A stretch of 64,000 nt of DNA from a virus. Of the stretch, positions 6,394 through 34,011 are shown one piece after another. Every line of letters begins with the position of its first letter. The stretch's first letter is position 1. The notes below the pieces were generated by a model. That model was not told the origin of the DNA. It worked only from the letters and a program-made list of their open reading frames with translations, and ran no database searches. The stretch lies in the IMG/VR virus record IMGVR_UViG_3300036790_000270, positions 1-64,000 of that record; one strand, 5' to 3'. A program made the position numbers and the translations under genes.

Positions 6394-6401
6394 AAGAACG
6401 G

Positions 6402-6910: not shown

Positions 6911-6924
6911 GTGATCCTCCGTTC

Positions 6925-6944: not shown

Positions 6945-6948
6945 ACTA

Positions 6949-7200
6949 CTAATGGATTGGTGTTCCGTCCGGGTACTGGGCACTGTTGAAGAACTCGATG
7001 CCTTCGTCGAACCCGCTGTCATACGCCGAAACAGCGCTGTACGTATCGATCCACCCCGGCATCCTTTCCGCTTTGATTACCTCTAGTGGATGGCTATCGC
7101 AGCCATAGGCGCTAACGTACGATGCGTGCGACCACCCGCGCTCACGGCCGGTTATCCGCGCCGCATTCGCCAGCTTCAAAGAGACGTCTAACCGCCTCAC
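6949..7200 (-). CDS. hypothetical protein
   Basis: 83 aa ORF in the co-oriented run. Confidence 0.5.
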   Translation of the reverse strand: MRRLDVSLKLANAARITGRERGWSHASYVSAYGCDSHPLEVIKAERMPGWIDTYSAVSAYDSGFDEGIEFFNSAQYPDGTPIH

Positions 7201-7484
7201 TGCTATCGCTCACGCGGATACCCCCAGCTTCTCCAGTTCCGCTAGCAGTTCGGCTAGCTCTGTGGCATAGGCTGATTCCTGCTCCATCCTGCTTTCTACC
7301 GGGCCCGCGTCCATCACGGCCCCCCTTCCTGTTTCGGTTACCGCGTTACCTGCGCGCGTGGCCACGGGTCACAGTTGACAGGCTGTAACCCGGACCATGC
7401 ACGTAAGTCACACAACACTTTTGACGGATGTCAGACCATGATGACTGACCACCTTTCTCATGCCAGTTGGCACGCGGAAAGCTA

Positions 7485-16647: not shown

Positions 16648-18297
16648 GTGCAAAGTGCTACTTCAGGTGTCCTGTATGGCAGTCAGACACCTCGCTTCTG
16701 GACGTGCCCGCCGCGGCACGTTCACCCGGTGGAGGGCTGCCGTTCCTGCGCGTCGCAGGCAGCTGAGTACCCGGCGGGCACCGGCTGCGGGGACACCCAG
16801 GCTATTGACGTCCTGGCGTGGGCGGCCGACGCCGCCGGGTACGAGCCTGACCCGTGGCAGAGCTGGTTCCTCACCCAGTCACTCGGCGTGCTGCCGGATT
16901 CCACCTGGGCTGCCTCTGACGTCGGGCTGATCGTCAGCCGCCAGAACGGCAAGGGCACCATCCTGGAGATCCGTGAGCTCGGCGGCCTGTTCGTGCTCGG
17001 CGAGGAACTGATCATCCACACCTCGCATGAGTTCAAGACGTCCGCTGAGCACTTCCGCCGGGTGAAGACGGTTTTCGACGATCACCCGGCGCTGCGCAAG
17101 CGGGTCAAGCGGATCGCCGGCTCTCACGGTGAGGAAGCGATCGAGCTGTTCCCGCAGCCCACCTTGATCTTCGGGGCCGGCCGCAGGCAGATCACCCGCC
17201 GTGTTGCCGGGCGCCTGCGGTTCCTTGCCCGGTCTAAGGGCTCCGGCCGTGGCTTCAGCTGTGACTGCCTGGTTTACGACGAGGCGATGATCTTGTCTGA
17301 GGACCAGGTTGCCGCGTCCCTGCCGACCATGTCCGCCCGTGCCAACCCGCAGATCTGGTACGCGGGCTCCGCTGGCGATGAGGACAGTGCCCAGTTCGGC
17401 GCGGTCCGCAACCGGATCGTGAAAAACACCTGCGATCTGTGCGGCGCCGAGTGGAGCATCAACCCGCACAATGACGCCTGCCCCCGCGATGAGGTAACCG
17501 GCCGGCCGTCCAACTACTTCATTACCTGCGCCAAGCATGACGACCGGGACGAACCGCGCAGCTGGGCGAAGGCCAACCCCGGGTACGGGTACCGCATCTC
17601 GGAGAAGTTCACCCGGAATACCGAGATGGCGAACATGCCGCCGTTCAAGTTCGACCGCGAGCGGCTCGGCGTCGGGGCATGGCCGCAGCCGGAAGCGCCC
17701 TGGGCGGTCATCAACGAGATCGCCTGGCAGAAGCTCGCCGTCTCCCAGGAAAAAGCCGGGTTCCCCGTTCAGCCGATCGTGTTCGCCCTTGACATCGACG
17801 AGGACGGCCGGTCCGCCACCATCAGCGCCGCCTGGGACCACGGGGAGTCCGGCCGGGTCGTGCTGGAAATCCCCCGCGGCTGCTCCAGGCAGGGCAGCGA
17901 CTGGATCATGGCGAAAGCGAAGGAACTCTACGAGAAGCGCAAGCCCCTCGCCATGGTCATCCCTAAGAGCGGTCCTGCGGCAGCGCTGATCCCCGAGGGC
18001 CGCAAGCTCTGGCGGGAGCGCTGCGTGGAGATCGGTACCGCTGAGGAGGCCGCCGCGTTCGCCTGGCTGATCCAGCAGGTTCGCGCGGATAAGCTCTGGC
18101 ATTTCGGCCAGGAAGGCGCCCCCACCCTGTGGCACGCTGTCGCCACCGCGGCAACTCGTGTTGTCGGTGACGGCGGCAAGGCCTGGTCCCGGCGTGACAG
18201 CGAGTCCGATATCACGCCGGCCACCAGCGCCACCCTTGCCGCCTACATCCTGAACAGGGACCGCCGTAACTACGACTTGATGTCCTCGATCGGGTAG
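16648..18297 (+). CDS. terL: terminase large subunit
   Basis: PWQ motif, SRQNGKG Walker A, LVYDEA Walker B, WAKANPG, ALDID nuclease motif. Confidence 0.95.
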   Translation: MQSATSGVLYGSQTPRFWTCPPRHVHPVEGCRSCASQAAEYPAGTGCGDTQAIDVLAWAADAAGYEPDPWQSWFLTQSLGVLPDSTWAASDVGLIVSRQNGKGTILEIRELGGLFVLGEELIIHTSHEFKTSAEHFRRVKTVFDDHPALRKRVKRIAGSHGEEAIELFPQPTLIFGAGRRQITRRVAGRLRFLARSKGSGRGFSCDCLVYDEAMILSEDQVAASLPTMSARANPQIWYAGSAGDEDSAQFGAVRNRIVKNTCDLCGAEWSINPHNDACPRDEVTGRPSNYFITCAKHDDRDEPRSWAKANPGYGYRISEKFTRNTEMANMPPFKFDRERLGVGAWPQPEAPWAVINEIAWQKLAVSQEKAGFPVQPIVFALDIDEDGRSATISAAWDHGESGRVVLEIPRGCSRQGSDWIMAKAKELYEKRKPLAMVIPKSGPAAALIPEGRKLWRERCVEIGTAEEAAAFAWLIQQVRADKLWHFGQEGAPTLWHAVATAATRVVGDGGKAWSRRDSESDITPATSATLAAYILNRDRRNYDLMSSIG

Positions 18298-20055: not shown

Positions 20056-20142
20056 GGAGGGTTGGCTGAGAGGCAAGGCGCTGGACTGCTAATCCATGGT
20101 CACGGCTGACGCCGTGCGCAGGTTCGACCCCTGCACCCTCCG
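20056..20142 (+). tRNA. tRNA-Ser(GCT)
   Basis: GGAGGGT/ACCCTCC acceptor stem, CTGCTAA anticodon loop, long variable arm, GTTCGAC T-loop. Confidence 0.85.
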
Positions 20143-20143
20143 C

Positions 20144-20226
20144 GGAAGGTACCGCCAGGGCGGCAAACGGCTCCAGAAAAGCCGGGCGGGCACTGCGTCC
20201 CGAGGGTTCGATTCCTTTACCTTCCG
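20144..20226 (+). tRNA. atypical tRNA-Ser(AGA) or pseudo-tRNA
   Basis: GGAAGGT/ACCTTCC acceptor stem, CGGCT-CCAGAAA-AGCCG anticodon arm, variable arm, GTTCGAT T-loop; weak D-arm. Confidence 0.6.
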
Positions 20227-20262
20227 CAGTGAGCTTGCCTATACCGCCCGCTTGACCCCCGG

Positions 20263-20338: not shown

Positions 20339-22063
20339 GTGGGGCTGATCGACAACATCCGGGCATCCGCTTACGAAGAGCGGGTGATCGGCGGTGTCCC
20401 GTGGAAGCCCTGGGAGAACCCGTTCTGGCGGTTTGACACCGGCGGCCCGGTGCACCCGACGCGGCAGTTTTACGGGCCGAACGAGGCGATGGGGCTGCCC
20501 GCCCTGTACGCGGGCGTCAAGCTGCTCGCCGACAACGCCGCCTCGCTGCCGCTGCGCGTCTACCAGAATTACAACGACGCCACCGGCTGGCCGAAGCACC
20601 GGCTGTGGAACGGCCCCACCATCTTCGATAAGCCGTCAGTCATCGGGACGTTCTTCGACTGGATGGCGCAGGCGATGGTGTCGGTCCTGCTGCAGGGCAA
20701 TGCCTGGGGGTTCATCTCCGGCAAGGACGGCTACGGGTTCCCGACCGGCATCGAGTGGATTCCGCCGGAGGACGTCTACGTCCTGGAGCCGCAGGACCAG
20801 CAGACCGCCAACCCGCTGCGCGCCAAGGTGTTCGTCTTCGGCCGCGAGGTCACCTGGTACGGTCCCGACGCCGAGGTCTTCCACGTCCGCGGCATCACGC
20901 TGCCCGGCCGCATCGAGGCGATCAGCCCGCTGCGCGCGTTCGCGCTGACGGTCCTGGCGGGCAAGGAGGCCCAGCGGTACGGCACCAGCTGGTACGAGGC
21001 CGGCGGCTTCCCGCCCGGTACCTTCCAGAACGCCGAGATGGAAGTTAACGCAGCTCAGGCGGCTGAGATCCGCGCGTCACTGGTGACCAGCCTGCGGCGC
21101 AGGGAGCCTTTGGTTTTCGGTCGCGACTGGGATTACAAGCCGGTCACCGTGCCGCCGAGCGAGGCGCAGTTCATCGAGGCGATGCAGCTGAACGCCACGC
21201 AGATCGCGGCGATCCTCAACCTGCCGCCCGACCGGCTGGGCGGTACCCGCGGGGACTCGCTGACGTACTCGACGTCGGAGCAGAGCACCCTGCAGATCAT
21301 CGAGGCGCTGCGCCCGTGGCTGACCCGGTTCGAGCAGAGCTTCTTCGACCTGCTGCCCCGCAACCGCTTCACCCGCTTCTACACCGATGCGCTACTGAAG
21401 ACAGACCTGGAAGCCCGGATGAACAACTACCAGGTGATGCGGAACATCGGCATGCGCACCGCTGACGAGATCCGCGAGCTGGAGGACCTGCCGCCGCTGC
21501 CGTCCGGGGTCGGTTCCGAGGAACTGCCACTGACCACCATGAACGCCATGGGCACCCGGGCCGGCGCCATCCCCAAGAGCTTCCTGAAGAGCGTCGTGCT
21601 GGAGATGGACATCGCCGCCGACCGGCTGATCAAGCTGGAGAAGACGATGATCAGCCAGGGCAAGCTACCGCAGGCAACAGCCCCTGCTCCCGGCATGCCA
21701 GGCCAGCCCGGCGCGGGAGGCTCAAGTAGCGGAAGGCCGGGCGCAAGTAGCGCCTCCCCGGCGCCCAGTGCCCCCGTAGGCGGCAAGGTCCCGATCGGGC
21801 TGCCGAATGCCCCGCTGCCGCTCACCCAGGACCCGGCGTCGTTCCTGTCCTCGCTGATCAGCGTGCAGCGCGACATGAGCTGCGACTACGAGATGCGCGA
21901 GCTGGCCCGGCACCTCTACAACTCCATCGCCGAGCGTGCCAACCGGATTGCCCGGGACGAGCCGGACGAGTACGTGCCGTCCTCCCACCTGCTGGCACCG
22001 TGGGTGCCTGGCCGCGACGACCTGCGCGAGGTCATTCTTTCCGCGAACGGGCACCGCAAGTGA
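20339..22063 (+). CDS. HK97-type portal protein with C-terminal extension
   Basis: LLQGNAW, VFHVRG, SPL, EAQFIEA, IAAIL.LPP..LG, MRTADEIRELEDLPP. Confidence 0.93.
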   Translation: MGLIDNIRASAYEERVIGGVPWKPWENPFWRFDTGGPVHPTRQFYGPNEAMGLPALYAGVKLLADNAASLPLRVYQNYNDATGWPKHRLWNGPTIFDKPSVIGTFFDWMAQAMVSVLLQGNAWGFISGKDGYGFPTGIEWIPPEDVYVLEPQDQQTANPLRAKVFVFGREVTWYGPDAEVFHVRGITLPGRIEAISPLRAFALTVLAGKEAQRYGTSWYEAGGFPPGTFQNAEMEVNAAQAAEIRASLVTSLRRREPLVFGRDWDYKPVTVPPSEAQFIEAMQLNATQIAAILNLPPDRLGGTRGDSLTYSTSEQSTLQIIEALRPWLTRFEQSFFDLLPRNRFTRFYTDALLKTDLEARMNNYQVMRNIGMRTADEIRELEDLPPLPSGVGSEELPLTTMNAMGTRAGAIPKSFLKSVVLEMDIAADRLIKLEKTMISQGKLPQATAPAPGMPGQPGAGGSSSGRPGASSASPAPSAPVGGKVPIGLPNAPLPLTQDPASFLSSLISVQRDMSCDYEMRELARHLYNSIAERANRIARDEPDEYVPSSHLLAPWVPGRDDLREVILSANGHRK

Positions 22064-22147
22064 AACGTTGCACGTCAGGTAGCAGGTGCCTACCATTTTC
22101 AATAGACGTGGCGCGTACTGCGCTGTTGCGTTTTAAGGAGACGACAG

Positions 22148-23533
22148 ATGGCTGTTCTTAGCAGCAGCGCACGCGACAACCTCCCCGATTCCGCTTTCGG
22201 TTACATCGAGCCCGGCGGCAAGAAGGTCAACGGCAAGACGGTGCCCGGCAGCAAGCGGCACTTCCCGATCCACGATTCAAATCACGTGAAGAACGCGCTC
22301 GCGCGCATCGCTCAGGGTGCCCGGTTCGGTGACCAGGCCAAGGGGAAGGTCATGGCGGCAGCTAAGCGCATGGGAATCGACCACGACGAGGCCAGCTCCG
22401 GCACCGGCCGTTCCTTCGACTCCCTTTACCCTGAGGTCCGGTTCCTCGCCGACGTCCCCGAGATCCGCAGCATCGGCGACGGCCAGCCCCAGCACATCAC
22501 CGGCTACGCCGCGGCCTTCGGGAAGCTGTCCCGGCGACTCGGCGGCTTCGTCGAGCGCGTCATGCCGACCGCCTTCAACGAGTCACGCGACGCCAACTGG
22601 CCGGACGTCGTCTGCCGGTACAACCACAAGGACGACATGGTCCTCGGCACCACCGCCGCGGGCACCCTCCAGCTGGAGGTGGACGAGCGCGGCCTGCGCT
22701 ACGACGTCGTCCCGCCCAAGCACCGCGCCGACGTGATGGAACTGATCGAGCGCCGCGACGTCCGCTACAGCTCCTTCGCGTTCCGGTGCGCCGTTCCCGG
22801 CACCGATGACGACTGGGGGCTGTCCGACTTCGGCATCCCGCTGCGCTCACTGCACAACACCACGCTGCTCGACACCGCCCCCGTCCTCGACCCGGCCTAC
22901 CGGGACACCTCCGCCGTCGCCCGCAACATGACCGGCGCCGTGGAGTCACTCGCCATGTGGGTGGACGCCGAGCCGGCTGAGGTGCGCAACATGATGGAGG
23001 CAGGCCAGGCCGCCCGCTTCTTCAAGCGCACTGACCGGCCGTCGGCCCCGGGGGCTGAGCCTGTCCCCGTTCCGGAGACCCGGGAGCAGACGATGCTGGA
23101 CGATCCGACTGTCGCCCTCCGGCACTGGACCTACGCCGACGACGACACTGACGTCACCGCTGAGCAGCACGCCGATGAAACGCGGGCGATGCACAACGCC
23201 GACACCATGTGCCGCAAGTACGTGGACGGGGAGCCCTGCGTTCAGGGTGCGGGGCACGACGGCGACTGCAAGGGCCGCTGCTACGGCCGGCCGCACGGGC
23301 TGCCCTGCGCCATGGTCCAGGGGCACGGCGGGGAGCACCAGCCGATGGCTGTCGATGACGGTAACGGCCCCGGCCGCGGGCGTCCCCCCGCGCACCGTGA
23401 CGGCAGTGAGGCAGAAGGCGAAAGCGAGGAGCAGCGTGAGGCTGCTGACCCGGCGGAAAACCGGACGCTGACCGGCCCCGAGGCACTGCTGAAGGCGCTG
23501 GAAATGCGCGGGCAGCTCACCCCGGTCGACTAA
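22148..23533 (+). CDS. HK97-type prohead protease with N- and C-terminal extensions
   Basis: ITGYAAAF, GGFVERV.P.AF, YNH, LGTT.AGTL.L.VDERGLRY, SSFAF, PAY.DT; N-terminal RDNLPDSAF...RHFPIHD..HVKNALAR module. Confidence 0.9.
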   Translation: MAVLSSSARDNLPDSAFGYIEPGGKKVNGKTVPGSKRHFPIHDSNHVKNALARIAQGARFGDQAKGKVMAAAKRMGIDHDEASSGTGRSFDSLYPEVRFLADVPEIRSIGDGQPQHITGYAAAFGKLSRRLGGFVERVMPTAFNESRDANWPDVVCRYNHKDDMVLGTTAAGTLQLEVDERGLRYDVVPPKHRADVMELIERRDVRYSSFAFRCAVPGTDDDWGLSDFGIPLRSLHNTTLLDTAPVLDPAYRDTSAVARNMTGAVESLAMWVDAEPAEVRNMMEAGQAARFFKRTDRPSAPGAEPVPVPETREQTMLDDPTVALRHWTYADDDTDVTAEQHADETRAMHNADTMCRKYVDGEPCVQGAGHDGDCKGRCYGRPHGLPCAMVQGHGGEHQPMAVDDGNGPGRGRPPAHRDGSEAEGESEEQREAADPAENRTLTGPEALLKALEMRGQLTPVD

Positions 23534-23537
23534 GCCC

Positions 23538-23876
23538 GTGGATGACGGCAAGATAGAGCGGCTGCTTCAGGCGATGGAGCAGAGACTCACTGAGAAACTG
23601 GAGATCATCATGTCTGAGCAGAGCCAGCAGCAGATCGACGTCAATAACGCGGGAACGGCCATCATCGCGCTGCTTACTGACATGCAGGCGGACATCAGCA
23701 CGATCGGTACCGGCGTCGCGAGCATCACGGCCGCGCTTGCCGCCCTGCCCGCCTCCGTCGACACCACGCAGCTTGATGCCGACGTCGCGCAGATCGCGGC
23801 AGCGCAGGCGAGCCTCGACGCGGCGGCTGCCTCGGTCGCTAACGCCGTGCCCCCGGTGACCCCGCCCGCGAGCTAA
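23538..23876 (+). CDS. Ala-rich coiled-coil hypothetical protein
   Basis: ORF between the protease and capsid genes. Confidence 0.55.
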   Translation: MDDGKIERLLQAMEQRLTEKLEIIMSEQSQQQIDVNNAGTAIIALLTDMQADISTIGTGVASITAALAALPASVDTTQLDADVAQIAAAQASLDAAAASVANAVPPVTPPAS

Positions 23877-23906
23877 GCTGAAGCCCTCGTCTGGTAGCGA
23901 GGCCCG

Positions 23907-23950
23907 GAACCCTTAATAAGCCCTGTGCTTGTTAAGGGTTCTGCCTTTTC
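23907..23950 (+). terminator. intrinsic terminator
   Basis: GAACCCTTAATAAGC/GCTTGTTAAGGGTTC stem followed by TGCCTTTT. Confidence 0.6.
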
Positions 23951-23969
23951 CGCTGTCAGGTTTGTGCCG

Positions 23970-24046
23970 TAGTCTTGAATTTGAGTTAGCCACGGCCGCG
24001 CGATCTGCGCTGGAGCTGGTCCATCCTGAAACAGGGAGGACTGGCA
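23970..24046 (+). promoter_or_regulatory. late promoter plus leader hairpin motif B (major capsid)
   Basis: TAGTCT; GCCA-CGG-CC...GG-AGC-TGGT. Confidence 0.7.
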
Positions 24047-25414
24047 GTGGCTTCAGACCTTGCCAAGTCGCTTCACGAGCAGGAGCAGGGAGTCTGGGGC
24101 AAGATTCAGTCCCTGGCCATGGCTGCCTCCGCCGAGAAGCGCAGTTTTACCGATGACGAGCAGCGCTCATTCGATGCGATGCACGCTGAGCTGGACGGCG
24201 TTGACAAGCGCCTGCGCGACATCCTTGAGGGTGAGAAGCGCCAGGCACAGACCGACGAGATGTACGCCGGCCTTGAGAAGCGCACGGGCACCCCGGGCAC
24301 GCACCGCCCGCTGAACAAGTTCGAGGAAGAGCTCCGGGCTTTCGCCCGCGGCGAGGTGCGCGCGATCGACGTCATCTCCTCGGAGTCCCGGATCATGCAG
24401 CGGCTGTCCACCGGCCGCCCCGTGAGCCCCACTGAGGTCCGTGTCCTGACCGACGCGTACATGCCGCCCGGCAGCTTTACCAACCAGACAAACGCCGGCA
24501 TCGTCCCGATTGACTTCTACGACCAGCTCCTGAGCTACCTGATTGAAGTCAGCGGCGTCATGCAGACTGGCCCCACGGTGCTGAACACCGCGGGCGGCGA
24601 GCCGATCCAGGTTCCCATTGTCCAGCAGCACACCGGCCTCACCACGGCTGGCGCCCAGGTGACCGTTTCCGCCGCGCAGTCCGCCACCCTGGCGACCGCC
24701 GACCCCGGCTTCGGCCAGAAGACCCTGACGGCGAACAAGTTCGGCATCCTCATTCAGGTCGCGCGGGAGCTGATCGACGACTCCGGCGTCAACCTGCTGG
24801 GCTACCTCGCCATGTCCTCGGGCCGCGCCATCGGTAACGCCCTCGGAAACGCGCTGGTCAACGGCGGCAACGGCATCACCGGGAGCATCCTTGCCGCGCC
24901 CGTCGCGGTTACCGGCGGCTCGGCCTCGGCAGTCAGCGCCACCAACCAGGCGCCCGGCGGCCCGTCCTACTCCAACCTGATCGACATGGAGTACAGCGTC
25001 ATCGCGCCGTACCGCCAGTCGCGGTCCTGCTACTGGCTGGCGGCCGATCACACGCTCGGCAACCTCCGCAAGCTGACTGACGCCATCGGCCGGCCCCTGT
25101 GGGAGCCGTCTACCGTCCTCGGCAGTCCCGACCTCCTGCTCGGCAAGCCGCTGGTCGCCGACCCGTTCATGCCGGCGATGGCCGCGGGATCGAGCATCTA
25201 CCCGATCGCGTTCGGCGACTTCAGCCAGTACTTCGTCCGGATGGTCGGCGGTGTCCGCTTCGAGCGGTCTGACGACTACGCGTTCGGCAGCGACCTGGTT
25301 TCCTTCCGGGCTGTTATCCGCGCCGACGGTAACCTGATGAACCCGCCCGTCTCGGTCACCCCGTCTCTCAAGGGCCAGCCGCTCGTGCTGTTCCAGAGTG
25401 CGGCAACGGGCTGA
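24047..25414 (+). CDS. HK97-fold major capsid protein
   Basis: coiled-coil delta domain, VARELIDDSGVNL, LRKLTDAIGRPLW, LLGKP, AFGDFSQY, FRAVIRADG. Confidence 0.93.
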   Translation: MASDLAKSLHEQEQGVWGKIQSLAMAASAEKRSFTDDEQRSFDAMHAELDGVDKRLRDILEGEKRQAQTDEMYAGLEKRTGTPGTHRPLNKFEEELRAFARGEVRAIDVISSESRIMQRLSTGRPVSPTEVRVLTDAYMPPGSFTNQTNAGIVPIDFYDQLLSYLIEVSGVMQTGPTVLNTAGGEPIQVPIVQQHTGLTTAGAQVTVSAAQSATLATADPGFGQKTLTANKFGILIQVARELIDDSGVNLLGYLAMSSGRAIGNALGNALVNGGNGITGSILAAPVAVTGGSASAVSATNQAPGGPSYSNLIDMEYSVIAPYRQSRSCYWLAADHTLGNLRKLTDAIGRPLWEPSTVLGSPDLLLGKPLVADPFMPAMAAGSSIYPIAFGDFSQYFVRMVGGVRFERSDDYAFGSDLVSFRAVIRADGNLMNPPVSVTPSLKGQPLVLFQSAATG

Positions 25415-25508: not shown

Positions 25509-26024
25509 ATGAAGGCTGTCCGGCTTACGCACTCCTGCTGGCTGAACGACCGCGTGCACGGGGATACGGGTGCCATCCTGTTTCTTGAGGATGATGAAGC
25601 GCACGGCCTTATCGTCGTTGGCCTGGGCATGCACGCTCCCGAGCATGAAATCGGCTCTGGCCCTGAGGCGGCGCAGGAGATCCCGGTCGTCAAGCGAGCG
25701 GATGCCCCCACTCCGGACGAGGTACTGGACCAGGCTGACATCAGCTTCGTCGGTCCGGAGGCGGCAGCGGCGCGCATGCAGGAGCTCGTCGACCTGACCG
25801 AGGAGCTGGGCCTGTACGACATCCCGGCGGACGACGCAGCCGCCGCGCTGGAGGAAGCCAGGCACGGGCAGCCGGAAATGACGAGGCCCTGGACGACCGC
25901 GGCAAAGGCCGACTGGATCAGCTGGGCGGTGCACGGCAATCACGGGCAGCCGCCGACAACTGCGGAAAACGCGGCGCTCCTGACGAAAAGCCAGCTGATG
26001 TCCCGCTATGGCGAACGGCTGTGA
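25509..26024 (+). CDS. hypothetical head-associated protein
   Basis: AGGAG RBS; C-terminal P...AAKADWISWAV...TKSQLM module seen after capsid genes in actinophages. Confidence 0.65.
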   Translation: MKAVRLTHSCWLNDRVHGDTGAILFLEDDEAHGLIVVGLGMHAPEHEIGSGPEAAQEIPVVKRADAPTPDEVLDQADISFVGPEAAAARMQELVDLTEELGLYDIPADDAAAALEEARHGQPEMTRPWTTAAKADWISWAVHGNHGQPPTTAENAALLTKSQLMSRYGERL

Positions 26025-26067
26025 CCCTCCTACACTAGAGGCATAGCGACCAGCAAGGAGTCCTCTC

Positions 26068-26598
26068 ATGGCCACTGTCAACGACGGCACCAACCCGGGC
26101 CGCAGCCCGCAGCCCGCGCGGCAGTCACCGGGCCGTACGCGCCACGGCCGTGCTGAGGCCGGCCTAGACCCGACTAACGAGCTCGGCCAGGTGCCGGGTG
26201 AGATCTTCGGCTTCTCCCAGACCTACGCGACCGGCGCCCGCGGCTCTTCCGGCAGCGGCTCCGTCCCGGCTGACGTCACCATCCAGAAGGGCCAGCTCGA
26301 CTCGGGCCTGTCCAACGTTGACGGTAGCGAGATCACCTCAACGGGTGCCCCTGGCAGTACGGGCGCGTCTAACCACGGCGGCGGCGAGACGGTCACCTAC
26401 ACCGACTTCTTCGGTTACATGGGCCAGGAGCACCGTGAGTCCTCGACTACCGGCCGCATCGACGGCGACGGCGACTGGACGCAGTTCGGGGAAGGCAGCG
26501 GCTTCAGTGGCCCCACCCTGCCGATCCTGCAGAACGCCCGGCCCACCTCTACCGGTGCCGGCCAGGGTCACGTCCGCGGGGCCGGCCGGGGCGTGTAA
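26068..26598 (+). CDS. Gly/Ser/Thr-rich hypothetical protein
   Basis: AAGGAG RBS; TACACT upstream. Confidence 0.65.
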   Translation: MATVNDGTNPGRSPQPARQSPGRTRHGRAEAGLDPTNELGQVPGEIFGFSQTYATGARGSSGSGSVPADVTIQKGQLDSGLSNVDGSEITSTGAPGSTGASNHGGGETVTYTDFFGYMGQEHRESSTTGRIDGDGDWTQFGEGSGFSGPTLPILQNARPTSTGAGQGHVRGAGRGV

Positions 26599-26783
26599 TG
26601 GCGAAGGACGAGTCGGGCGTGCGGTGGCCGGCGTGGCCTGTCGTCGGCGCCGTGGGCGCGAACGGGAACTACGACCCGGCAGCGGCGCTCCCGCGCGCTT
26701 CTGATTTCACCCTGACCCCGTCCGGGATTGCCGAGCAAGAGGCAGCGGTACCGCAGGAGGCACCCGATGCAGGACCTGAGTGA
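26598..26783 (+). CDS. small hypothetical protein
   Basis: TAATG coupling. Confidence 0.5.
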   Translation: MAKDESGVRWPAWPVVGAVGANGNYDPAAALPRASDFTLTPSGIAEQEAAVPQEAPDAGPE

Positions 26784-27024
26784 GCACGCCCGCGGCAGCC
26801 TCGCCATGAGCAGCAGCATGGCGGGCGGCAACGTCCTGTCGGAGATCCCCAAGTTCGGGTCGCCGGGCAGCCCGTCAGAGCAGACCTCTGACATCCCCTG
26901 GGGTCCCTCGCACAATGACCCTGAGCCGCAGATCGGCGCGCCGTCGGGTGCGCACACTGATACCAAGACGGGCGGCAGCGGCGAGTACCCGCTTTCCCCG
27001 CGAGCCTGGAAGAAGGTGCCGTAA
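26767..27024 (+). CDS. small Gly/Pro/Ser-rich protein
   Basis: AGGAGG RBS before MQDLSEH. Confidence 0.55.
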   Translation: MQDLSEHARGSLAMSSSMAGGNVLSEIPKFGSPGSPSEQTSDIPWGPSHNDPEPQIGAPSGAHTDTKTGGSGEYPLSPRAWKKVP

Positions 27025-27299
27025 TGGCGGCTAGCTGGGGACCAGTTGAGCGCCCTGCGGGGCGAGGCGGCCGGCCGATCGGCGCAGAGGGCACTGTCAC
27101 GCAGCCGTCAGAGGGCAGCCTGGGGGCCGGGCCGCATCACGAGGTCCGCTACGACGCGACCGACGGGCGGCACGGGCGCGAGTCCGGCATGCACCCGTGG
27201 GAGTCGGTTGACCCGATGTCCGGCCCAACCGCGAATACCGACTTCGGCCAGTCAGCCGGCCGGTTCCCCGACGGCCCCGGTGCCTGGCGCCAGACCTGA
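27024..27299 (+). CDS. small Gly/Pro-rich protein
   Basis: TAATG coupling. Confidence 0.55.
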   Translation: MAASWGPVERPAGRGGRPIGAEGTVTQPSEGSLGAGPHHEVRYDATDGRHGRESGMHPWESVDPMSGPTANTDFGQSAGRFPDGPGAWRQT

Positions 27300-27300
27300 C

Positions 27301-27690
27301 GTGACGCGCGTCATCAAGACGGCCATCGTGTTCATCGCGGTGGCCGTCGTTTTCTGCCTGGCCGCCGTGTACGACCGGGTTATCCTGCATTTCCTCGGCT
27401 GGGACGGGCAGACCAGCGACAATTACGCTGCCTGGTCCGGGTCGGTCCCTGCCCTGATCTCCGCGGTCGGGCTGTCTACGCTGATCACCGGCATGTGGTC
27501 ACATGTTAACTGCCATGAGCCGGGCTGCTTCCGGATCGGCAAGCACAAGGTAAGCGGGACGCCCTGGTGCACCGTTCACCATGAGCATGCCCGCCCGGAG
27601 CGCAGTGAGCACGAGATCCTGGCCTCCATCGAGGCGAGCATGACGGAGCTGCTGAGCCTGCTGCGGGCGCAAGCCGGCGAGCCGCATTGA
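27301..27690 (+). CDS. two-TM membrane protein with a C/H motif
   Basis: GTG at 27301; two hydrophobic helices, then CHEPGC...WCTVHH. Confidence 0.6.
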   Translation: MTRVIKTAIVFIAVAVVFCLAAVYDRVILHFLGWDGQTSDNYAAWSGSVPALISAVGLSTLITGMWSHVNCHEPGCFRIGKHKVSGTPWCTVHHEHARPERSEHEILASIEASMTELLSLLRAQAGEPH

Positions 27691-28043
27691 ACGTGCACCA
27701 CAAGCGGATGCTGAAGCTATTCGGGCTGGTGGCTGCGCTGGTGGTGGTTCTCGGCACCGTGTACGGCGAGGTAACCCCGGCTGGCCCGTGGGACGGCATG
27801 TACTTCGCCGTGGTAACCGTGACGACCGTCGGGTACGGCGACATCGTCCCGCACGGCTGGGCCGCGCACCTGGTCGCCCTGGCGATCATGATCCTGATCA
27901 TCCCCGCCTGGGCCAGCGTGTTCTCCCTGCTTACCACCGCTATGCTGGCCAGCCACGTAGACGCGCAGACTCACCGCCAGACTGCCGAGATCAAGGAGCA
28001 CGTCAGTGACACTATGGGCAACGCGCAAGCCGGGCAGCAGTGA
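27687..28043 (+). CDS. KcsA-like two-TM potassium channel
   Basis: TM1, pore helix WDGMYFAVVTVT, selectivity filter TVGYGD-IVP, TM2. Confidence 0.88.
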   Translation: MNVHHKRMLKLFGLVAALVVVLGTVYGEVTPAGPWDGMYFAVVTVTTVGYGDIVPHGWAAHLVALAIMILIIPAWASVFSLLTTAMLASHVDAQTHRQTAEIKEHVSDTMGNAQAGQQ

Positions 28044-28281
28044 CCTCATTACCGTCAGCATGACCTACGGCCCGATTACCGCCGCGGTTGAAGAGAACAG
28101 TGGTCACTTGCTTAGTTTCTGGCATGAGCTCGGCCGCCTGGTTGCCGTGCAGGACAACGAGAAGCGCGCGCAGGCCGGCTGGCAGCGGTACGCAGCGCAT
28201 CACACGGACGGCCCTATGCCTACCTGGGAGGGACTGCACGAGGAAGAACGCCAGCACTGGATTGCCGCGTTCACGGAATAG
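28006..28281 (+). CDS. hypothetical protein
   Basis: AAGGAG RBS; MPTWEGL.EEERQHWIAA motif. Confidence 0.55.
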   Translation: MTLWATRKPGSSDLITVSMTYGPITAAVEENSGHLLSFWHELGRLVAVQDNEKRAQAGWQRYAAHHTDGPMPTWEGLHEEERQHWIAAFTE

Positions 28282-28372
28282 CCCGCCTGGGGGTGGCGCG
28301 GTGGTTAGCTCCAGTCAGCGCTGTTCCCCGACGGGGGTGACTGGAATGCCGTGCTGGGCTAGGCTGTGCCTC

Positions 28373-28789
28373 ATGAATAGTACTAGATGGTTTAACGGGG
28401 TAGTTCCGATGCCTAGCGTGTTGGCGATCACGGCTTACCTGTCTTACGAGTCTTTCACTGTTCAATACGGGAACGGTGAGTTCGGTCTAGCTGACTACTC
28501 GACAGCAGCAGATGTAGACACAGCAGTTGCGACGTTTGTTGAGGATGCGGGATTCCCGTGGATTGCTGTCGGTAGCGCGGGAAATATTCCGGATAACGAC
28601 AACGAAGTAGTTAACTGGACGCTCGCCATCAATCTCGGTAGTTGGGCGCTAACTTCATTGTCGGATAGTGGAGACGGACTAAGGGTTAACGGTAGCGGGA
28701 GTACGCCGGGTTACGCTCCGTGGGATAACTTTGCTGATGCCATGGCCGCGATCCTGTCTATCACGGGAAATTCTGCGTGGCCATCGTAG
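28373..28789 (+). CDS. hypothetical protein with lower GC
   Basis: AT-richer codon usage than its neighbours; start uncertain (28373 or 28409). Confidence 0.5.
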   Translation: MNSTRWFNGVVPMPSVLAITAYLSYESFTVQYGNGEFGLADYSTAADVDTAVATFVEDAGFPWIAVGSAGNIPDNDNEVVNWTLAINLGSWALTSLSDSGDGLRVNGSGSTPGYAPWDNFADAMAAILSITGNSAWPS

Positions 28790-29490
28790 AACCTGTCCAC
28801 TGGTACCATTTCTTCTGCGGTAATGACGTTCTCTCCATGTGGGACGTGCCGCTCACTGAGCACGTCGCTGGCCTGCGCTCCGCTGGCTTTGACGGGAAGT
28901 GCTTGGTCGGTCTTGTCGGTGGTGCGGGGCAACAGGAAGACGCCCGGCGGTGGCTTGCTGCGTACTGGCCGGAAGCTGAAATCGCAGTAACGGCAGAAGA
29001 CGGCTTTGAACAGGTGACCCTAGCCGCACTGCACATGTGGTGTCAGGATGCCGACCCGGAAATACCAGTTTTTTACGGGCACACGAAGGGCGCTTTCTCT
29101 AACCACCCTGTTGCTGCCCCGTGGCGCCGGGCGATGACCGCAGTGTGCGTTGCCCGGTGGCGGGATCGCGTGGCTGACCTGGCGGCCGTTGACGCGGCCG
29201 GGCTGCACTGGCTGACACCGGAGGCATTTCCCGGTTACGTGAGCAGCCCGTTCTTCGGGGGTAACTTCTGGTGGGCGACAGCCGGGTACCTCGCGTCCCT
29301 CGCCCCGGTAGACCCCGGGGACGTTAACCGCTACAGCGCGGAAAGCTGGGTCGGCACCGGGAACCCGGTAGTGCGAGCGCTCAGCACCGCATGGCCGGAG
29401 TACGCGGGCTGCACCTTCCCGCCGGGGCGGCCGTTATGCGTATCCTCGCGTCGCACGACGGCGGCTCAGGGTGCAGCTGGTACCGGATGA
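28777..29490 (+). CDS. putative glycosyltransferase-like protein
   Basis: FEQVTL, YGHTKGA, FFGGNFWWA and AESW motifs seen in phage glycosylation loci. Confidence 0.55.
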   Translation: MAIVEPVHWYHFFCGNDVLSMWDVPLTEHVAGLRSAGFDGKCLVGLVGGAGQQEDARRWLAAYWPEAEIAVTAEDGFEQVTLAALHMWCQDADPEIPVFYGHTKGAFSNHPVAAPWRRAMTAVCVARWRDRVADLAAVDAAGLHWLTPEAFPGYVSSPFFGGNFWWATAGYLASLAPVDPGDVNRYSAESWVGTGNPVVRALSTAWPEYAGCTFPPGRPLCVSSRRTTAAQGAAGTG

Positions 29491-30503
29491 TCATGCCGCT
29501 GACCGCGGTGAACGACCTCGCTGACGGGATCAGCGTTACATTCCGGGCTGGCGGCGGGAAGCTGATGAAAAACCCGCACCCCATGGTGACGGTCGCTGAC
29601 GGTGATAATGCCGACCTGGTTGTCTCCCAGCGGGCCAGTGAGTACCGCGGCCTCGGCCTGTGGCGCCGGTGGGGCAGCTCCCCGGCGCGGCGCACCGTTT
29701 ACGAGAACGACGACGACGTCTTCTCCATCACCCCGGAGAACGATGCTGCCTACGCTTCCTACAAAGAAGGCACCGACGTCCGGGAGGCGACCCTCCGCTA
29801 CTGCCGCACCGCCAACCTGATCACCACCACCAGCCCGCACCTAGGCGACCGGTTCCGGGAAATGTGCCCGCAGGTCCCGGTGGAGGTGCTGCCCAACTAC
29901 ATTCCCCGATGGGTCCTAGACTTGCCGCGAGACCCATTCGACAGGCGGCTCCGGATCGGCTGGGCCGGCGGCTCCTCGCACGCGCGGGACATCCACACCG
30001 CGACGTCGTCGGTCCGCCGGTTCATGACGCGGTTCCCCGGCTGGGACCTGTACCTGAACGGCATCGACTACCGGCGCCAGTTCCGCTGCCCGCCCGAGCG
30101 GTCCTTCCACGTCCCGTGGATACACGTTACCGACGAGCCGCAGCTTTACTACCGGGCTATCGACTTCGACATCGGCATCTGCCCGCTGCTGTCCACCCAG
30201 TTCAGCCGGTCCAAGAGCTGGATTAAGTCACTGGAGTACTTCAGCCGGGGCATTCCCGTCGTGGCCAGCGACGTCGAGCCGTACCGCCGGTTCATCGACC
30301 ACGGTGTCGACGGGTTCCTCTGCAAGACCGACCATGAATGGCTGAAGTACCTGTCCCTGCTGGCGGGCGATGAGGAACTCCGGCTGAAGATGGGCGCCGC
30401 GGCGAAAATGAAGGCTTCCGCTAACGTCATGGAAGACCATGTGCAAGAGTGGGTCAACGCTTACACGATGCTGTTCCCGATCGGCTGGGAGTATAAGGGC
30501 TGA
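29436..30503 (+). CDS. GT-B (GT4-like) glycosyltransferase
   Basis: GCSWYR, YENDDD, IGWAGGSSH, DIGICPL...KSWIKSLEY...GIPVVASDV.PY...DGFL. Confidence 0.85.
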   Translation: MRILASHDGGSGCSWYRMIMPLTAVNDLADGISVTFRAGGGKLMKNPHPMVTVADGDNADLVVSQRASEYRGLGLWRRWGSSPARRTVYENDDDVFSITPENDAAYASYKEGTDVREATLRYCRTANLITTTSPHLGDRFREMCPQVPVEVLPNYIPRWVLDLPRDPFDRRLRIGWAGGSSHARDIHTATSSVRRFMTRFPGWDLYLNGIDYRRQFRCPPERSFHVPWIHVTDEPQLYYRAIDFDIGICPLLSTQFSRSKSWIKSLEYFSRGIPVVASDVEPYRRFIDHGVDGFLCKTDHEWLKYLSLLAGDEELRLKMGAAAKMKASANVMEDHVQEWVNAYTMLFPIGWEYKG

Positions 30504-30506
30504 TGT

Positions 30507-30869
30507 ATGAGCCGAAACTGTTACGTTAGGGGTGCCCTGCCAGCCTGCGAGCAGCAAGGATGCCAGGCTCCGGCGCTAGCCGCGCTGTCACGCCGCCTGT
30601 CTGAGCAGGCGCACACGGTCCTAGAGACGCTAGACAAGAAGGGAACGCAGATGCAGCCGACTAAGGCGCTGTGGTGCGAGCAGAGCGGCCACCCGTTCAG
30701 CGAGAAGGACCCGGACGTTCAGGTGCTTACGATTACCGGCCGTAGCCCGGACGGGGAGACGGTAGAGGAGTCGCGGACCAGCTGCGGGGAGTGCGCCGCT
30801 GTGGCGAAGACCCGGCTCGGCAAGGTACGCAACAGCCAGGTTTCCCAGCTTCCGCCTAGCGACTCGTAA
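30507..30869 (+). CDS. small hypothetical protein
   Basis: ORF fills the gap; the true start may be 30651. Confidence 0.4.
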   Translation: MSRNCYVRGALPACEQQGCQAPALAALSRRLSEQAHTVLETLDKKGTQMQPTKALWCEQSGHPFSEKDPDVQVLTITGRSPDGETVEESRTSCGECAAVAKTRLGKVRNSQVSQLPPSDS

Positions 30870-31832
30870 ATGAAGTACCTGGTAACCGGCGGGGCCGGGT
30901 TCGTCGGCAGCAGCCTGGTGAAGCGGCTCGTTGCCGACGGGCACGAGGTCACCGTCCTCGACGACATGTCCCGGGGCAAGCCTGAGCGGCTAGACGGCGT
31001 TAGCTGTCAGGTTAAGCCAGGCGACATACGCGATTCTTACCTGGTCAAGCGGGCGATGCACGGCTGCGACGCCGTCGTGCACCTTGCCTACCTTCAGGGT
31101 ACGCAGACGTTCTACGCTGAGCCCCGCCAGGTTCTTGACGTCGCCGTGCGCGGAATGCTTACCGTCCTGGACGCGTGCGAGGCCACCGGCTGCGCCGACC
31201 TGCTGCTGGTCTCCTCGTCGGAGGCGTACCAGGTAGCTCCTGTCGTGCCTACTCCCGAGGACATACCGCTGACCGTCCCCGACGTGCTCAATCCCCGCTA
31301 TTCCTACGGCGGCGGCAAGATCGCCTGCGAGCTGATGGCCCTGGCCTGGCAGCGGACTGGGGTCCTCGACCGCCTGGTCATCGCCCGGCCGCACAATATC
31401 TACGGCCCCGACATGGGCCGCGAGCACGTTATCCCCGAGTTCTGCGACCGGATGACCGTATTGAACCGGGAGCAGCCCGAGGGAACTATCCCGTTTCCCG
31501 TTCAGGGCACCGGTCAGGAAACCAGGTCGTTCTGCTATATCGATGACTGTATTGACCAGCTGGCGGTACTTGCCCGCGAAGACTGCTCCGTTGAGGGTGT
31601 CTACCACGTCGGCACCATGGACGAGTGGCGCATCGAGGACGTCGCCGGGCTGATCGCCTGGAATTACGGCCGCGACATTAAGCTCATGCCGGGTACCCTG
31701 CCCAAGGGCTCCCCGCCCCGCCGGCTGCCCGATACTGCTAAGATCCGGTCACTGCGTACCGAGTGGCACCAGACTCCGTTCCGCGAGGGTCTCACCAAGA
31801 CCGTCGAATGGTACCGCGCTAATGAGCGGTGA
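30870..31832 (+). CDS. NAD-dependent NDP-sugar epimerase/dehydratase
   Basis: VTGGAGFVGS, SSSE, YGGGK (YxxxK), RPHNIYGP, TRSFCYIDD. Confidence 0.92.
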   Translation: MKYLVTGGAGFVGSSLVKRLVADGHEVTVLDDMSRGKPERLDGVSCQVKPGDIRDSYLVKRAMHGCDAVVHLAYLQGTQTFYAEPRQVLDVAVRGMLTVLDACEATGCADLLLVSSSEAYQVAPVVPTPEDIPLTVPDVLNPRYSYGGGKIACELMALAWQRTGVLDRLVIARPHNIYGPDMGREHVIPEFCDRMTVLNREQPEGTIPFPVQGTGQETRSFCYIDDCIDQLAVLAREDCSVEGVYHVGTMDEWRIEDVAGLIAWNYGRDIKLMPGTLPKGSPPRRLPDTAKIRSLRTEWHQTPFREGLTKTVEWYRANER

Positions 31833-32946
31833 GACTGACACTTGCGGCGGCTGCGGCACTGCCGGCCTGATCCCGGTTTTTGACATGGGACGCCAGCCTC
31901 TTGCCGAGGGCGCGTCCTCCCGCAGCTACCCCCTGTGCCTGGTCAAGTGCCCGCGCTGCGGCCTTGTCCAGCTTGACTACATCGTCGACCCGGCCGAGGT
32001 ATTCCCGAAGGACCACCCGTACTCGACAGGAAACTCTGCGGCGCTGCGCGAGCATTACGGCCGTCTAGCCCGGGACCTCGCTACAAACCTGTTCACCGAT
32101 GACGTCGTCGTTGACATCGGCGCCAACGACGGGACGCTGCTAGCCTGCTACCCGCCGGGCGGCCTGGTGAAGGTCGCCGTTGAGCCGACGGACCAGGGAA
32201 AGAAGATCCCGGCGGGCATCACCTGGGAGAAGGGCTCCTTCACTGCGAATCTCGCCATAGGTATTCGCGAGGGATACGGCCCGGCCAAGGTGATCACCGC
32301 GATGAACGTTCTCGCGCACGTGCCCGACGTGCACGATTTCCTCGACGGCGTTGCTGAGCTGCTGCACGACGACGGGGTGTTCGTCACTGAGAACCACGAC
32401 CTGTACAGCATCACCGAGGGCCTGCAGATCGACACGATTTACCATGAGCACCTGCGCTACTACACCGTCGGCACTCTCGCTCACCTGCTAGAGCAGCACG
32501 GGCTGCACGTCACCCGCTCAGAGCCGACCCCGATGCACGGCGGGTCGTTCCGCGTTCGGGCGCGCAAGGTCGCCCCTGGTTTCCAGAGGCGGGCCAGGTC
32601 CGCGGCGACCGCGCTGCGCGGCATGCTGTGGCAGCTCGTCGACAAGCACCAGGCTGTCTACGGTATCGGCGCAACCACCCGCGCGACCCCGCTGATCCAT
32701 TACGCCGGCATCAAGGACCTCGTCGACTGCGTTTGCGAGCGGCCAGGTAGCGACAAGATAGGCACGTGCATCCCAGGTACCGCGATCGAGGTAGTCGACG
32801 AGGCCCGGCTCATTACCGACCAGCCGCCGTACGCCCTGCTGTTCGCCTGGCACATCGCTGACGACATCGTTCCGAAGCTGCGCGCGGCCGGGTACAAGGG
32901 GAAGTTCATCGTGCCGCTGCCGAGCCCGGAGGTCCTTGATGACTGA
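31822..32946 (+). CDS. NDP-hexose C-methyltransferase
   Basis: N-terminal zinc-binding CxxC...CPRC, DIGANDG, NVLAHVPD, YHEHLRYY, HGGS, LLFAWH...FIVPLP. Confidence 0.88.
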   Translation: MSGETDTCGGCGTAGLIPVFDMGRQPLAEGASSRSYPLCLVKCPRCGLVQLDYIVDPAEVFPKDHPYSTGNSAALREHYGRLARDLATNLFTDDVVVDIGANDGTLLACYPPGGLVKVAVEPTDQGKKIPAGITWEKGSFTANLAIGIREGYGPAKVITAMNVLAHVPDVHDFLDGVAELLHDDGVFVTENHDLYSITEGLQIDTIYHEHLRYYTVGTLAHLLEQHGLHVTRSEPTPMHGGSFRVRARKVAPGFQRRARSAATALRGMLWQLVDKHQAVYGIGATTRATPLIHYAGIKDLVDCVCERPGSDKIGTCIPGTAIEVVDEARLITDQPPYALLFAWHIADDIVPKLRAAGYKGKFIVPLPSPEVLDD

Positions 32947-33310
32947 GCTAGGCCGCTTCGAGGACGAGCGCGGTGTCATTCAGGACCTGCTAGCCGGCCC
33001 TGTCGATTCCGTCACCGAGATCTTTACGCGGGCCGGGGCCGTCCGTGGTAATCATGTGCATGCTGAGACTGTCCAGTGGACTTACGTTGTCTCCGGCAGG
33101 CTCCGCGTAGTGCATCAGTCGGCGGGCGCTGAGCCGGCTGCTAACGAATGCGGTTCCGGCGAGCTGATCTGCGATCCGATGGGCGTTGCCCACGCCTGGC
33201 AGGCAGTGGAGGACACGACAGTTCTCGTCTTCACGCGGGGCCCGCGCTCGGGGGCGGACTACGAGGACGACGTGCAGCGGCTAGCCCCGGGGGACAGGCT
33301 GATTCCGTGA
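32939..33310 (+). CDS. cupin (NDP-sugar isomerase/epimerase-like)
   Basis: FEDERG, VRGNHVH, AHAW cupin motifs. Confidence 0.8.
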   Translation: MTELGRFEDERGVIQDLLAGPVDSVTEIFTRAGAVRGNHVHAETVQWTYVVSGRLRVVHQSAGAEPAANECGSGELICDPMGVAHAWQAVEDTTVLVFTRGPRSGADYEDDVQRLAPGDRLIP

Positions 33311-34011
33311 GCACTGCCGTTATCATCCCTACCTTCGGCCGCGCGGGCAAGATGGCGGCCGTCACCCGGAACATCCTGGAGGCCAGCCACGCGCCGCTGA
33401 ACGTGTTCTTCGTGGTGGAGCGAGACGACGCGGAGTCTGTAGCGGAAGCCGGGCGGCTATTTGACGAGAACATCGTCAGCGTAGTAAACACCCGGAAGCA
33501 GTCATATGCCGGTGCGGTCAATACCGCCGTCAGTGCGCTGCTAGACCTAGAGTGGGAGTACTTCTTCCTGGGCGCGGACGACCTCGACTTCAAGCCCGGC
33601 TGGGATACCGAGGCCCTGCGGGCAGCTCAAGACGGCGCGCTGGTGATCGGCACTAACGACCTGCATAACCCTTACGTCCTAGCCGGAACTCACGCCACGC
33701 ACGTCCTGGTGCACCGGGATTACGTCACTGACCCGCGTTATGCCTACGACCCGGATATGGCGGGGCAAGTGATGTTCGAGGGTTACGATCACAACTTCGT
33801 CGACACTGAGTTCGTTGACGCGGCCAAGGCAGCTGGTGTCTTTACCCCGTGCATGACCTCCGTAGTGGAGCACCTCCACCCCGACTGGGGCCTGTCCCCG
33901 TGGGATGCCACGTACGCGAAGACCCGTGCGCGTATTCATGATGATCACGGGCTATTCCGGTCTCGCGAGCACTTGTGGACAGCGCACCCGGACGGAAGGC
34001 AGCTGCTGTGA
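33307..34011 (+). CDS. GT2 glycosyltransferase
   Basis: VIIPTFGR, FLGADD (DxD-like), VEHLHP. Confidence 0.85.
   Translation: MSTAVIIPTFGRAGKMAAVTRNILEASHAPLNVFFVVERDDAESVAEAGRLFDENIVSVVNTRKQSYAGAVNTAVSALLDLEWEYFFLGADDLDFKPGWDTEALRAAQDGALVIGTNDLHNPYVLAGTHATHVLVHRDYVTDPRYAYDPDMAGQVMFEGYDHNFVDTEFVDAAKAAGVFTPCMTSVVEHLHPDWGLSPWDATYAKTRARIHDDHGLFRSREHLWTAHPDGRQLL

Follow-up and report, generated by a model that had tools for sequence, protein, structure and literature searches.

Putative K+ channel genes have been reported in a range of tailed bacteriophages. In its passages on phages, Greiner 2018 (Viruses 10:456; PMC6163359) places such channels in Myrna, Phabba, BillNye, vibriophages, ME3 (an Acinetobacter phage), ventosus and PLE, with Mycobacterium phage Myrna gp260 and Streptomyces phage BillNye gp111 as named genes, and these passages also note that infection by T4 or T5 disturbs host K+ conductance. 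The portion of a 2026 paper that concerns phage channels states that none of them has been functionally studied (PMC13715775). Ion-conducting systems of two genes, a sensor and a channel, have been described as well; in the relevant passages of PMC6426606 this is the accepted model for lambda RexAB and for the actinophage systems CarolAnn gp43/gp44 and Sbash gp30/gp31.

Here we describe a small K+ channel gene that overlaps the gene for a putative membrane zinc-finger protein. It lies in the window, by which we mean the whole stretch of DNA that was analysed, the first 64 kb of a virus record. The channel resembles those of Greiner 2018, as its phage passages describe them, in size (~117–124 aa), in having two helices and a G-Y/F-G-D filter, and in coming from a tailed phage, actinophages being among the published hosts of such genes. 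It is not their close kin, however, as tblastn against BillNye, Wakanda and Myrna gave E values of 0.8–3. Whereas the Myrna and BillNye channels lie among tRNA, nucleotide-metabolism and small non-structural genes, the window channel lies in a structural operon and overlaps its partner. Kcv-type channels are likewise virus-encoded and pore-only, ~80–120 aa long and free of a sensor domain, and the corresponding passages of PMC6163359 describe no partner subunit for Kcv. This likeness is one of description rather than of sequence comparison. Chloroviruses and the other algal viruses with such channels have an internal membrane, and their channel is thought to act at entry. Because a tailed phage has no membrane, the window channel must act from the host membrane after its synthesis.

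Since phage K+ channel genes have already been reported (Greiner 2018), the channel taken alone is a further member of a published group. More channels of this kind may be found in Table S2 and Figure S1 of PMC6163359. The obligate zinc-finger partner appears to be new: a search of article full text returned no paper on the partner subunit, on this channel clade or on the zinc-finger family, and we did not find the pairing in print.

A minimal K+ channel gene in a soil phage

The source of the window is an uncultivated soil bacteriophage. Its record is linear, 117,211 bp long and ~65% G+C, and CheckV estimates it to be 82% complete. The stretch is present in three soil-metagenome DNA runs from three studies, one of which may be its source; the runs listed are DNA runs only, with no RNA run among them.

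The channel gene occupies positions 27687..28043 of the plus strand, which carries all window features given below, and opens with a TTG codon to encode 118 aa. The gene call of the collection starts 7 codons later, at an ATG, and gives 111 aa. We consider this later start less likely than the overlapping TTG, as the N-terminus (M/V-N-V-H-H) and the gene junction are both conserved in relatives. Residues 15–86 match Pfam Ion_trans_2 (PF07885) with 50.2 bits against a cut-off of 22.5 (E 2.3e-13; 50.7 bits in a scan of the phage's own genome), residues 10–117 align with profile positions 13–120 of 122 in PHROG 14690 (E 1.1e-13, 52.2 bits), and NCBIfam gave only partial matches far under their cut-offs. 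Two hydropathy helices flank the pore helix and filter. The outer helix (residues 8–26, 27708..27764) aligns with that of NaK2K, and the pore helix and selectivity filter (residues 35–55, 27789..27851), identified by invariant columns, contain an intact TVGYGD signature, T47-V-G-Y-G-D52, at 27825–27842. The inner helix (residues 62–80, 27870..27926), placed by hydropathy and alignment, carries the invariant Pro73 and Phe79 and is followed by ~30 residues. The protein is rich in His at both its N- and C-termini (H4, H5, H90, H96, H105). By sequence it is a bona fide K+ channel module, which would be expected to form a tetramer and to conduct K+.

When compared with the PDB, the profile of the channel family recovered K+ channels only (231 sequences at E <= 0.001), with TOK, KcsA, K2P, NaK and Lmo2059 matching at E 6e-11 to ~1e-7. 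KcsA chains were found at E ~1e-9 to 1e-7, ranked below TOK, and their match spans only profile positions ~30–106, from the pore helix to the inner helix. Searched as a single sequence, the window channel had NaK2K, K2P, Lmo2059 and KCNQ as its best matches. The original prediction had been of a 118-aa minimal, KcsA-like channel with an intact TVGYGD filter, of a type rare in phages, and had named Ion_trans_2 as the family to look for. The ORF, the filter and the Pfam match all bear this out. The term KcsA-like is apt for a generic two-helix K+ pore and not in any specific sense: the protein stands at least as close to NaK, K2P and TOK pores as to KcsA, as NaK2K chains are the best single-sequence matches (E 3e-7) and KcsA is absent among the 60 best that were listed. 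Rarity is also a fair description, as tblastn of the channel matched 27 of 50,697 phage records at E <= 5, none of them closely.

NaK/NaK2K (Bacillus cereus), KcsA (Streptomyces lividans) and Lmo2059 share with the window channel the order of outer helix, pore helix, filter and inner helix. With its 118 aa the window channel is shorter than KcsA (160-residue chain 1f6g_A), and we count the invariant Pro of its inner helix as a difference from the solved prokaryotic pores. KcsA is characterized by a long C-terminal helical bundle and by a Glu71-Asp80 pair behind the filter. The window channel has neither of these subfamily features, and the position that we take to correspond to Glu71, counting back from the filter, is Val43.

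In a collection of 5.8 billion proteins, 33 proteins including the window's own matched the channel at E <= 1.2e-22, and the next match was at 2.8e-8. Since 32 further metagenome proteins precede this gap, the ORF is more than a chance reading frame. The family forms a discrete set of proteins 102–135 aa long. In an alignment of 34 rows, G23, G37, Y39, T47, G49, G51, D52, P55, G57, H61, P73 and F79 are invariant, and T-[VI]-G-Y-G-D is present in 33. Cellular relatives reach at most ~41% identity and 73 bits among the best 80 loci, whereas intact viral members score at least 116 bits. Megablast of positions 26000–30000 against isolated phages found no close relative.

The filter varies among channels linked to a partner gene. 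Of 24 distinct homologues of this kind in which the filter region is present, 14 have the canonical TVGYGD and 10 do not. Eight of the variants read T-[VDA]-G-C-[DN], are one residue shorter and have Cys in place of the pore-helix Phe, and the remaining two, at one locus each, read TLG-GD (L003) and TSGNSP (L102). At these variant loci the channel ORFs are intact and the partners retain the zinc motif. With 10 of 24 linked channels departing from the canonical filter, the module does not strictly depend on K+ selectivity. The filter losses at L003 and L102 and the Cys-containing variant could also indicate a decaying or re-purposed pore fold whose product does not conduct K+ in vivo, and the statement that no phage K+ channel has had a functional study, in the phage-channel part of PMC13715775, is compatible with this. 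For the window gene we regard such decay as most improbable. Its filter, pore-helix aromatics and inner helix show no damage and agree with the invariant columns, and its ORF is open. The ratio dN/dS was below 1 in all 15 channel pairs (0.29–0.73) and in all three partner pairs (0.47–0.91), values that are rough because dS is near saturation (0.6–1.4).

The upstream partner and its linkage to the channel

The partner gene (27301..27690) runs from a GTG start to a TGA stop and encodes 129 aa. It begins after a 1-nt gap from a 91-aa ORF of unassigned function (27024..27299) that has no family match in Pfam, PHROG or NCBIfam and whose homologues lie directly upstream of the partner in the closest relatives, L002 and L010. 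Helix 1 of the partner (residues 4–22, 27310..27366) has a hydropathy of 2.67 over 19 residues. It is followed by a conserved interhelix loop, LHFLGWDGQTSDNYAAWSGSVP (27379..27444), and by a second helix at about residues 49–66 (27445..27498). This helix is only weakly hydrophobic and rich in Ser, Thr and Gly; it falls below the hydropathy threshold of 1.6, hence was not assigned by program, and was placed by eye and by conservation. In an alignment of 33 rows, Y42, S46 and P50 in and next to the loop are invariant and H30, L32, G33, D35, Q37, S39, D40, A44 and S48 nearly so, and the loop motif is still present across the wide family. With the topology that we propose, the loop would lie outside the cytoplasm.

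Four residues past helix 2 starts the motif N70-C71-H72-x3-C76-x-R-x-G80-...-C90-x2-H93, part of a membrane-proximal Cys-Cys-Cys-His cluster (27508..27582; N70-C71-H72 ... C76 ... C90 ... H93-H94) with more His beyond it; the C-terminus is a charged helical tail. N70, C71, C76, G80, C90 and H93 are invariant in the 33 rows. The window partner has every invariant column of its family and was matched by the family profile in its own genome at E 6.2e-43. The residue pattern would suit a Cys3-His zinc knuckle in the cytoplasm at the membrane surface. The partner matched nothing in Pfam, PHROG, NCBIfam or PADLOC, its profile gave 0 PDB matches at E <= 10, and Atlas searches for a look-alike returned only unnamed viral and actinobacterial clusters and sub-threshold structural rows.

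The stop of the partner and the start of the channel share 4 nt, TTGA, at 27687..27690 (ATTGA context). Because of this overlap the two proteins are probably translated in a fixed ratio. Among the 15 loci listed, 8 have a GTGA or TTGA overlap and 5 have longer overlaps; L002, with a GTGA at the partner stop, makes a ninth, and in L003 the two genes are separated by a minus-strand ORF together with an incomplete second copy of the partner C-terminus.

Fourteen loci were recovered when viral contigs were searched with the channel family, and 13 of them include the 5′ side of the channel. At all 13, the channel is directly preceded on the same strand by a partner homologue that ends at or overlaps the channel start (two of the loci, L015 and L016, lie on different contigs but are nearly identical, and were later counted as one). 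The partner query alone gave two loci, each of which has a channel homologue downstream. Scanning DNA for the pattern of the zinc motif yielded 72 loci, 71 with a match to the partner family and 15 with a channel directly downstream; 5 of these 15 were on contigs already found and 10 were new. Thus, the partner is immediately upstream in 24 of 24 distinct viral loci of this channel clade, and it has been kept across branch lengths of ~0.5–1 change per site and in several genome contexts. No partner was detected at the best 80 cellular K+ channel loci (0/80 at E <= 10), nor did the Myrna and BillNye channel loci give a partner match at E <= 0.001. Among longer proteins, a weak test, there was no fused partner-channel protein, the two matches being unrelated longer K+ channels. 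The original prediction had coupled the channel to a two-TM protein with a Cys/His cluster. We recover that protein, with helix 1 from hydropathy, helix 2 by eye and the cluster from conservation, and the strict conservation of the pair strongly suggests a functional link between the two.

The partner belongs to a larger family. Of 66 candidate homologues, 62 matched at E <= 0.001, and an exhaustive profile search against clusters at 50% identity gave 717 at E <= 0.001, of which 138 reached E <= 1e-10. Across 38 distant rows, C71, C76 and C90 never vary and H72 and H93 hardly do; these rows gave no PHROG match and, in Pfam, five unrelated single-row matches only. The pattern C-x4-C-x(8-18)-C-x2-H is present in 69 of 75 viral members. 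Short proteins that lack the first helix are numerous in the family, and the helix-1 region was matched in 19 of 25 channel-linked partners versus 6 of 50 solo members. With the partner and the distant members P0211 and P0149 as queries, tblastn found nothing in the 50,697 phage records, and a motif scan of cellular genome contigs found no relative. In the sampled viral contigs, 50 of 75 unique domains lie at loci with no channel, so the family has a function of its own. For the same reason, the linkage could reflect descent as a cassette rather than contact between the proteins.

To place the channel-linked partners we used a quick maximum-likelihood search in IQ-TREE on 75 partner domains. 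In the resulting tree, 22 of the 25 channel-linked rows group in a single clade (SH-aLRT 97) free of solo rows, and the other three form a second supported clade. The labels for channel linkage require two changes on this tree, compared to a mean of 21 when shuffled. From this we conclude that a two-helix branch of the larger phage family acquired the channel on one or two occasions and has retained it since.

The late operon and the possible role of the pair

In line with the prediction, the pair lies within a morphogenesis operon. The gene order begins with the terminase large subunit (16648–18297), followed by two tRNA-Ser genes, by the portal, prohead protease and major capsid protein (20339–25414) and by a head-tail connector (25509–26024; weak PHROG match), which several small unmatched ORFs separate from the partner and channel. 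Downstream are a sugar cassette (29391–34011) of a group-1 glycosyltransferase, an NAD epimerase/dehydratase, a C-methyltransferase and a family-2 glycosyltransferase, then a head-tail adaptor (42257–43291) and, last, a tape measure protein of 1836 aa. This order from terminase to tape measure identifies the operon as that of a siphovirus-type phage, with the pair between the capsid gene and the sugar-modification cassette. The pair has no intergenic space and no promoter-like signal of its own. We considered a moron with its own promoter, expressed from a prophage, and set it aside, as a sigma-70-type scan, which covers actinobacterial promoters poorly, showed nothing above chance near the pair; terminator-like signals there did not exceed chance either. 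Neither integrase type (PF00589, PF00239) was detected in the 117-kb record.

The original prediction went on to suggest membrane depolarisation for lysis timing or superinfection exclusion, roles that are conjectural. The position of the pair bears on whether it works like RexAB. RexA/RexB and CarolAnn gp44/gp43 also consist of two genes, one of which is proposed to control an ion-conducting membrane protein (passages on these systems in PMC6426606), and the sensor-plus-channel model accepted for them and for Sbash could be extended to the pair: the membrane zinc-finger protein would sense a cue and open the channel, the membrane potential would collapse, and the resident or first phage would be protected by exclusion or abortive infection. 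The cue could be, e.g., the DNA or an early protein of a competing phage, and a cytoplasmic zinc knuckle is plausible as a ligand sensor. The varied genome positions of the cassette are moron-like, and a serine recombinase lies near the pair in one relative, L003. We nevertheless judge exclusion of this type to be distinctly unlikely. RexAB-type systems combine a DUF4747 protein with a four-helix RexB and are expressed from a prophage beside the repressor, whereas DUF4747 is absent from the partner, the channel is a two-helix protein and the pair is embedded in a late structural operon with neither spacing nor a promoter-like signal to set it apart. There was no PADLOC match for either protein and no Pfam match for the partner, and the pair has no repressor or integrase context. 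In addition, a K+-selective pore depolarises only at high external K+.

A tally of Pfam matches over 148 ORFs neighbouring the pair gave Glyco_trans_1_2 (9), Phage_capsid (7), Glycos_transf_1, epimerase, C-methyltransferase and VIT1 (4 each) and terminase (3). The VIT1-family genes, which resemble ion transporters and follow the channel in some relatives, fit a role of the channel as an auxiliary metabolic gene, through which the infected cell would regain or hold K+ for translation and assembly and for which the partner would be a neighbour by descent. Viral K+ channels restore K+ uptake when tested in heterologous systems, which we count in favour of such a role, as we do the finding that the partner family occurs mostly with no channel. 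The perturbed host K+ conductance in T4 and T5 infection points the same way (phage passages of PMC6163359). Even so, K+ supply seems to us a clearly improbable explanation: an irrelevant partner should have been lost or replaced somewhere, yet it is kept in 24 of 24 loci, and the 10 of 24 non-canonical filters are ill-suited to pure K+ supply.

Lysis genes are rare in the same tally, with Glyco_hydro_25 at 2 of the 148 ORFs compared to 13 glycosyltransferases, and on these neighbour-gene counts we rejected the pair as part of a lysis cassette. The 117-kb record gave no match to the lysin catalytic families PF01510, PF01183 and PF01551, to the glycoside-hydrolase-like PF08924 or to the peptidoglycan-binding PF01471. 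A tie to lysis is therefore without positional support. The partner family could still be a lysis protein of soil actinophages, a holin or holin regulator, to which the channel was added to tune triggering. The partner is a small protein of one or two helices that ends in a charged tail, and no other lysis cassette was found in the record. Some solo partners adjoin lysis-type genes, namely Glyco_hydro_25, PG_binding_1, GDSL lipase and Phage_holin_2 with one each among 55 downstream ORFs; these 55 are 52 hand-picked from 92 plus those at L106, L116 and L003 and are not a systematic sample. The simple gene caller missed the partner gene in 19 of 71 loci, and 87 upstream ORFs lie outside the tally. 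We hold a holin role to be very unlikely: such neighbours are a small minority, no holin family matched the partner or its 38 distant relatives, and known holins have, to our knowledge, neither an invariant zinc knuckle nor a highly conserved loop. As the record is only 82% complete, its lysis genes may also lie in the missing part.

We favour the reading that the two genes form a late phage membrane module, in which a K+ pore and an auxiliary subunit act on host voltage or K+, and assign it a probability of roughly one half. The pair would be made late in infection along with the virion proteins. The downstream gene would supply a minimal K+ pore, presumably a homotetramer, and the upstream gene a membrane anchor whose Cys3-His knuckle, a few residues past the last helix, would face the cytoplasm beside the inner gate of the channel and its His-rich termini. 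In this position the partner could act as an auxiliary subunit in assembly or gating. Once open, the channel would tie the host membrane potential to the K+ gradient in the late phase, and such a voltage clamp might bear on the cell's energy state and on when voltage-triggered lysis sets in. KCNE proteins are small single-pass membrane proteins that co-assemble with a eukaryotic K+ pore and alter its gating. The comparison is by analogy only; the partner has a zinc knuckle and comes from a phage-wide family that mostly occurs with no channel. The solo partner loci (50 of 75), the lack of a fusion among the proteins searched, the variant filters (10 of 24) and the rarity of lysis genes all weigh against the subunit model.

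In a bolder form, which we put forward tentatively and consider unlikely as a whole, phages would have invented, in the zinc-finger protein, a new type of K+ channel beta-subunit, and the pair would be a voltage switch gated by the knuckle. In response to a cytoplasmic signal of late infection (redox state, free zinc, a packaging intermediate or nucleic acid), the membrane-proximal knuckle would gate the pore, and the switch would set the moment of lysis or shut out rivals. If this were true, the wider family, with its 717 mostly single-pass clusters, would be a general phage toolkit acting on host membrane proteins, and the TVGC-D lineage would represent a pore of novel selectivity.

The partner family is in itself a large family of phage membrane proteins, comprising at least 717 clusters and matching no family in four libraries. 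With a strictly linked and overlapping partner, a probable zinc site and natural filter variants, the channel clade offers a handle on what channels do for phages, and co-assembly, partner-dependent gating and a dependence on zinc or redox state follow as predictions. The small size of the two proteins (118 and 129 aa) should ease biophysical work. The pairing may help to explain why some phages carry K+ channels.

Filter variants and an interrupted pair

The channels linked to the zinc-finger membrane partner do not all keep the canonical TVGYGD selectivity filter. One lineage of partner-linked channel homologues (loci L113, L129, L130, L147, L152, L155, L162 and L171) carries the filter T-[VDA]-G-C-[DN], which is one residue shorter, and its pore helix has Tyr-Cys where others have Tyr-Phe. 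The channel ORFs of this lineage are unbroken, with some of the proteins extended by long C-terminal tails. The two cysteines that the variant introduces might pair in a disulfide or create a metal site.

The filter is lost (TLG-GD) at viral contig locus L003, where the partner gene, a minus-strand ORF, a partial partner copy and the channel follow one another in that order (6001-7437). The minus-strand ORF, which lies 3′ of the partner gene (6390-6845), encodes 151 aa and gave no match in a Pfam search. It is followed by the partial second copy, which comprises the partner's C-terminal zinc region and has a stop codon overlapping the start of the channel gene. In this arrangement, a mobile element appears to have inserted into the pair.

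Genes near the pair and elsewhere in the window

Directly 3′ of the channel, two loci encode a membrane protein of 151-161 aa (L010:5377-5832 and L008:4288-4773) that matches the N-terminal part of the VIT1 family of iron/manganese transporters. VIT1 matches were found for 4 of the 148 neighbour ORFs over the pair loci.

In the window, a sugar-modification cassette (29391-34011) lies 3′ of the capsid gene and 5′ of the head-tail adaptor gene and contains a group-1 glycosyltransferase, an NAD epimerase/dehydratase, a C-methyltransferase and a family-2 glycosyltransferase. In other phage lineages, too, the genes that occur most often beside the pair encode glycosyltransferases. Virion glycosylation has been described for mycobacteriophages, and the window cassette possibly serves this function.

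The phage record also encodes a 514-aa GMC-family FAD oxidoreductase (2696-4240, minus strand) and, just 5′ of the portal gene, two adjacent tRNA-Ser with anticodons GCT and AGA (20056-20227, plus strand). Two plus-strand genes among the tail genes encode a 795-aa DUF4082 protein (39873-42260) and a protein of 1759 aa that has a glycine-rich domain (54535-59814); a 499-aa ORF (37209-38708) was without match.

Neighbours of solo partner-family members

Some channel-less members of the partner family adjoin, for example, a GH25 muramidase-like gene (L106), a putative Rv2525c-like glycoside hydrolase gene read by eye (L141) or a gene for a small two-helix membrane protein (L116). These neighbours hint that some of the zinc-finger family may have a role connected with lysis.
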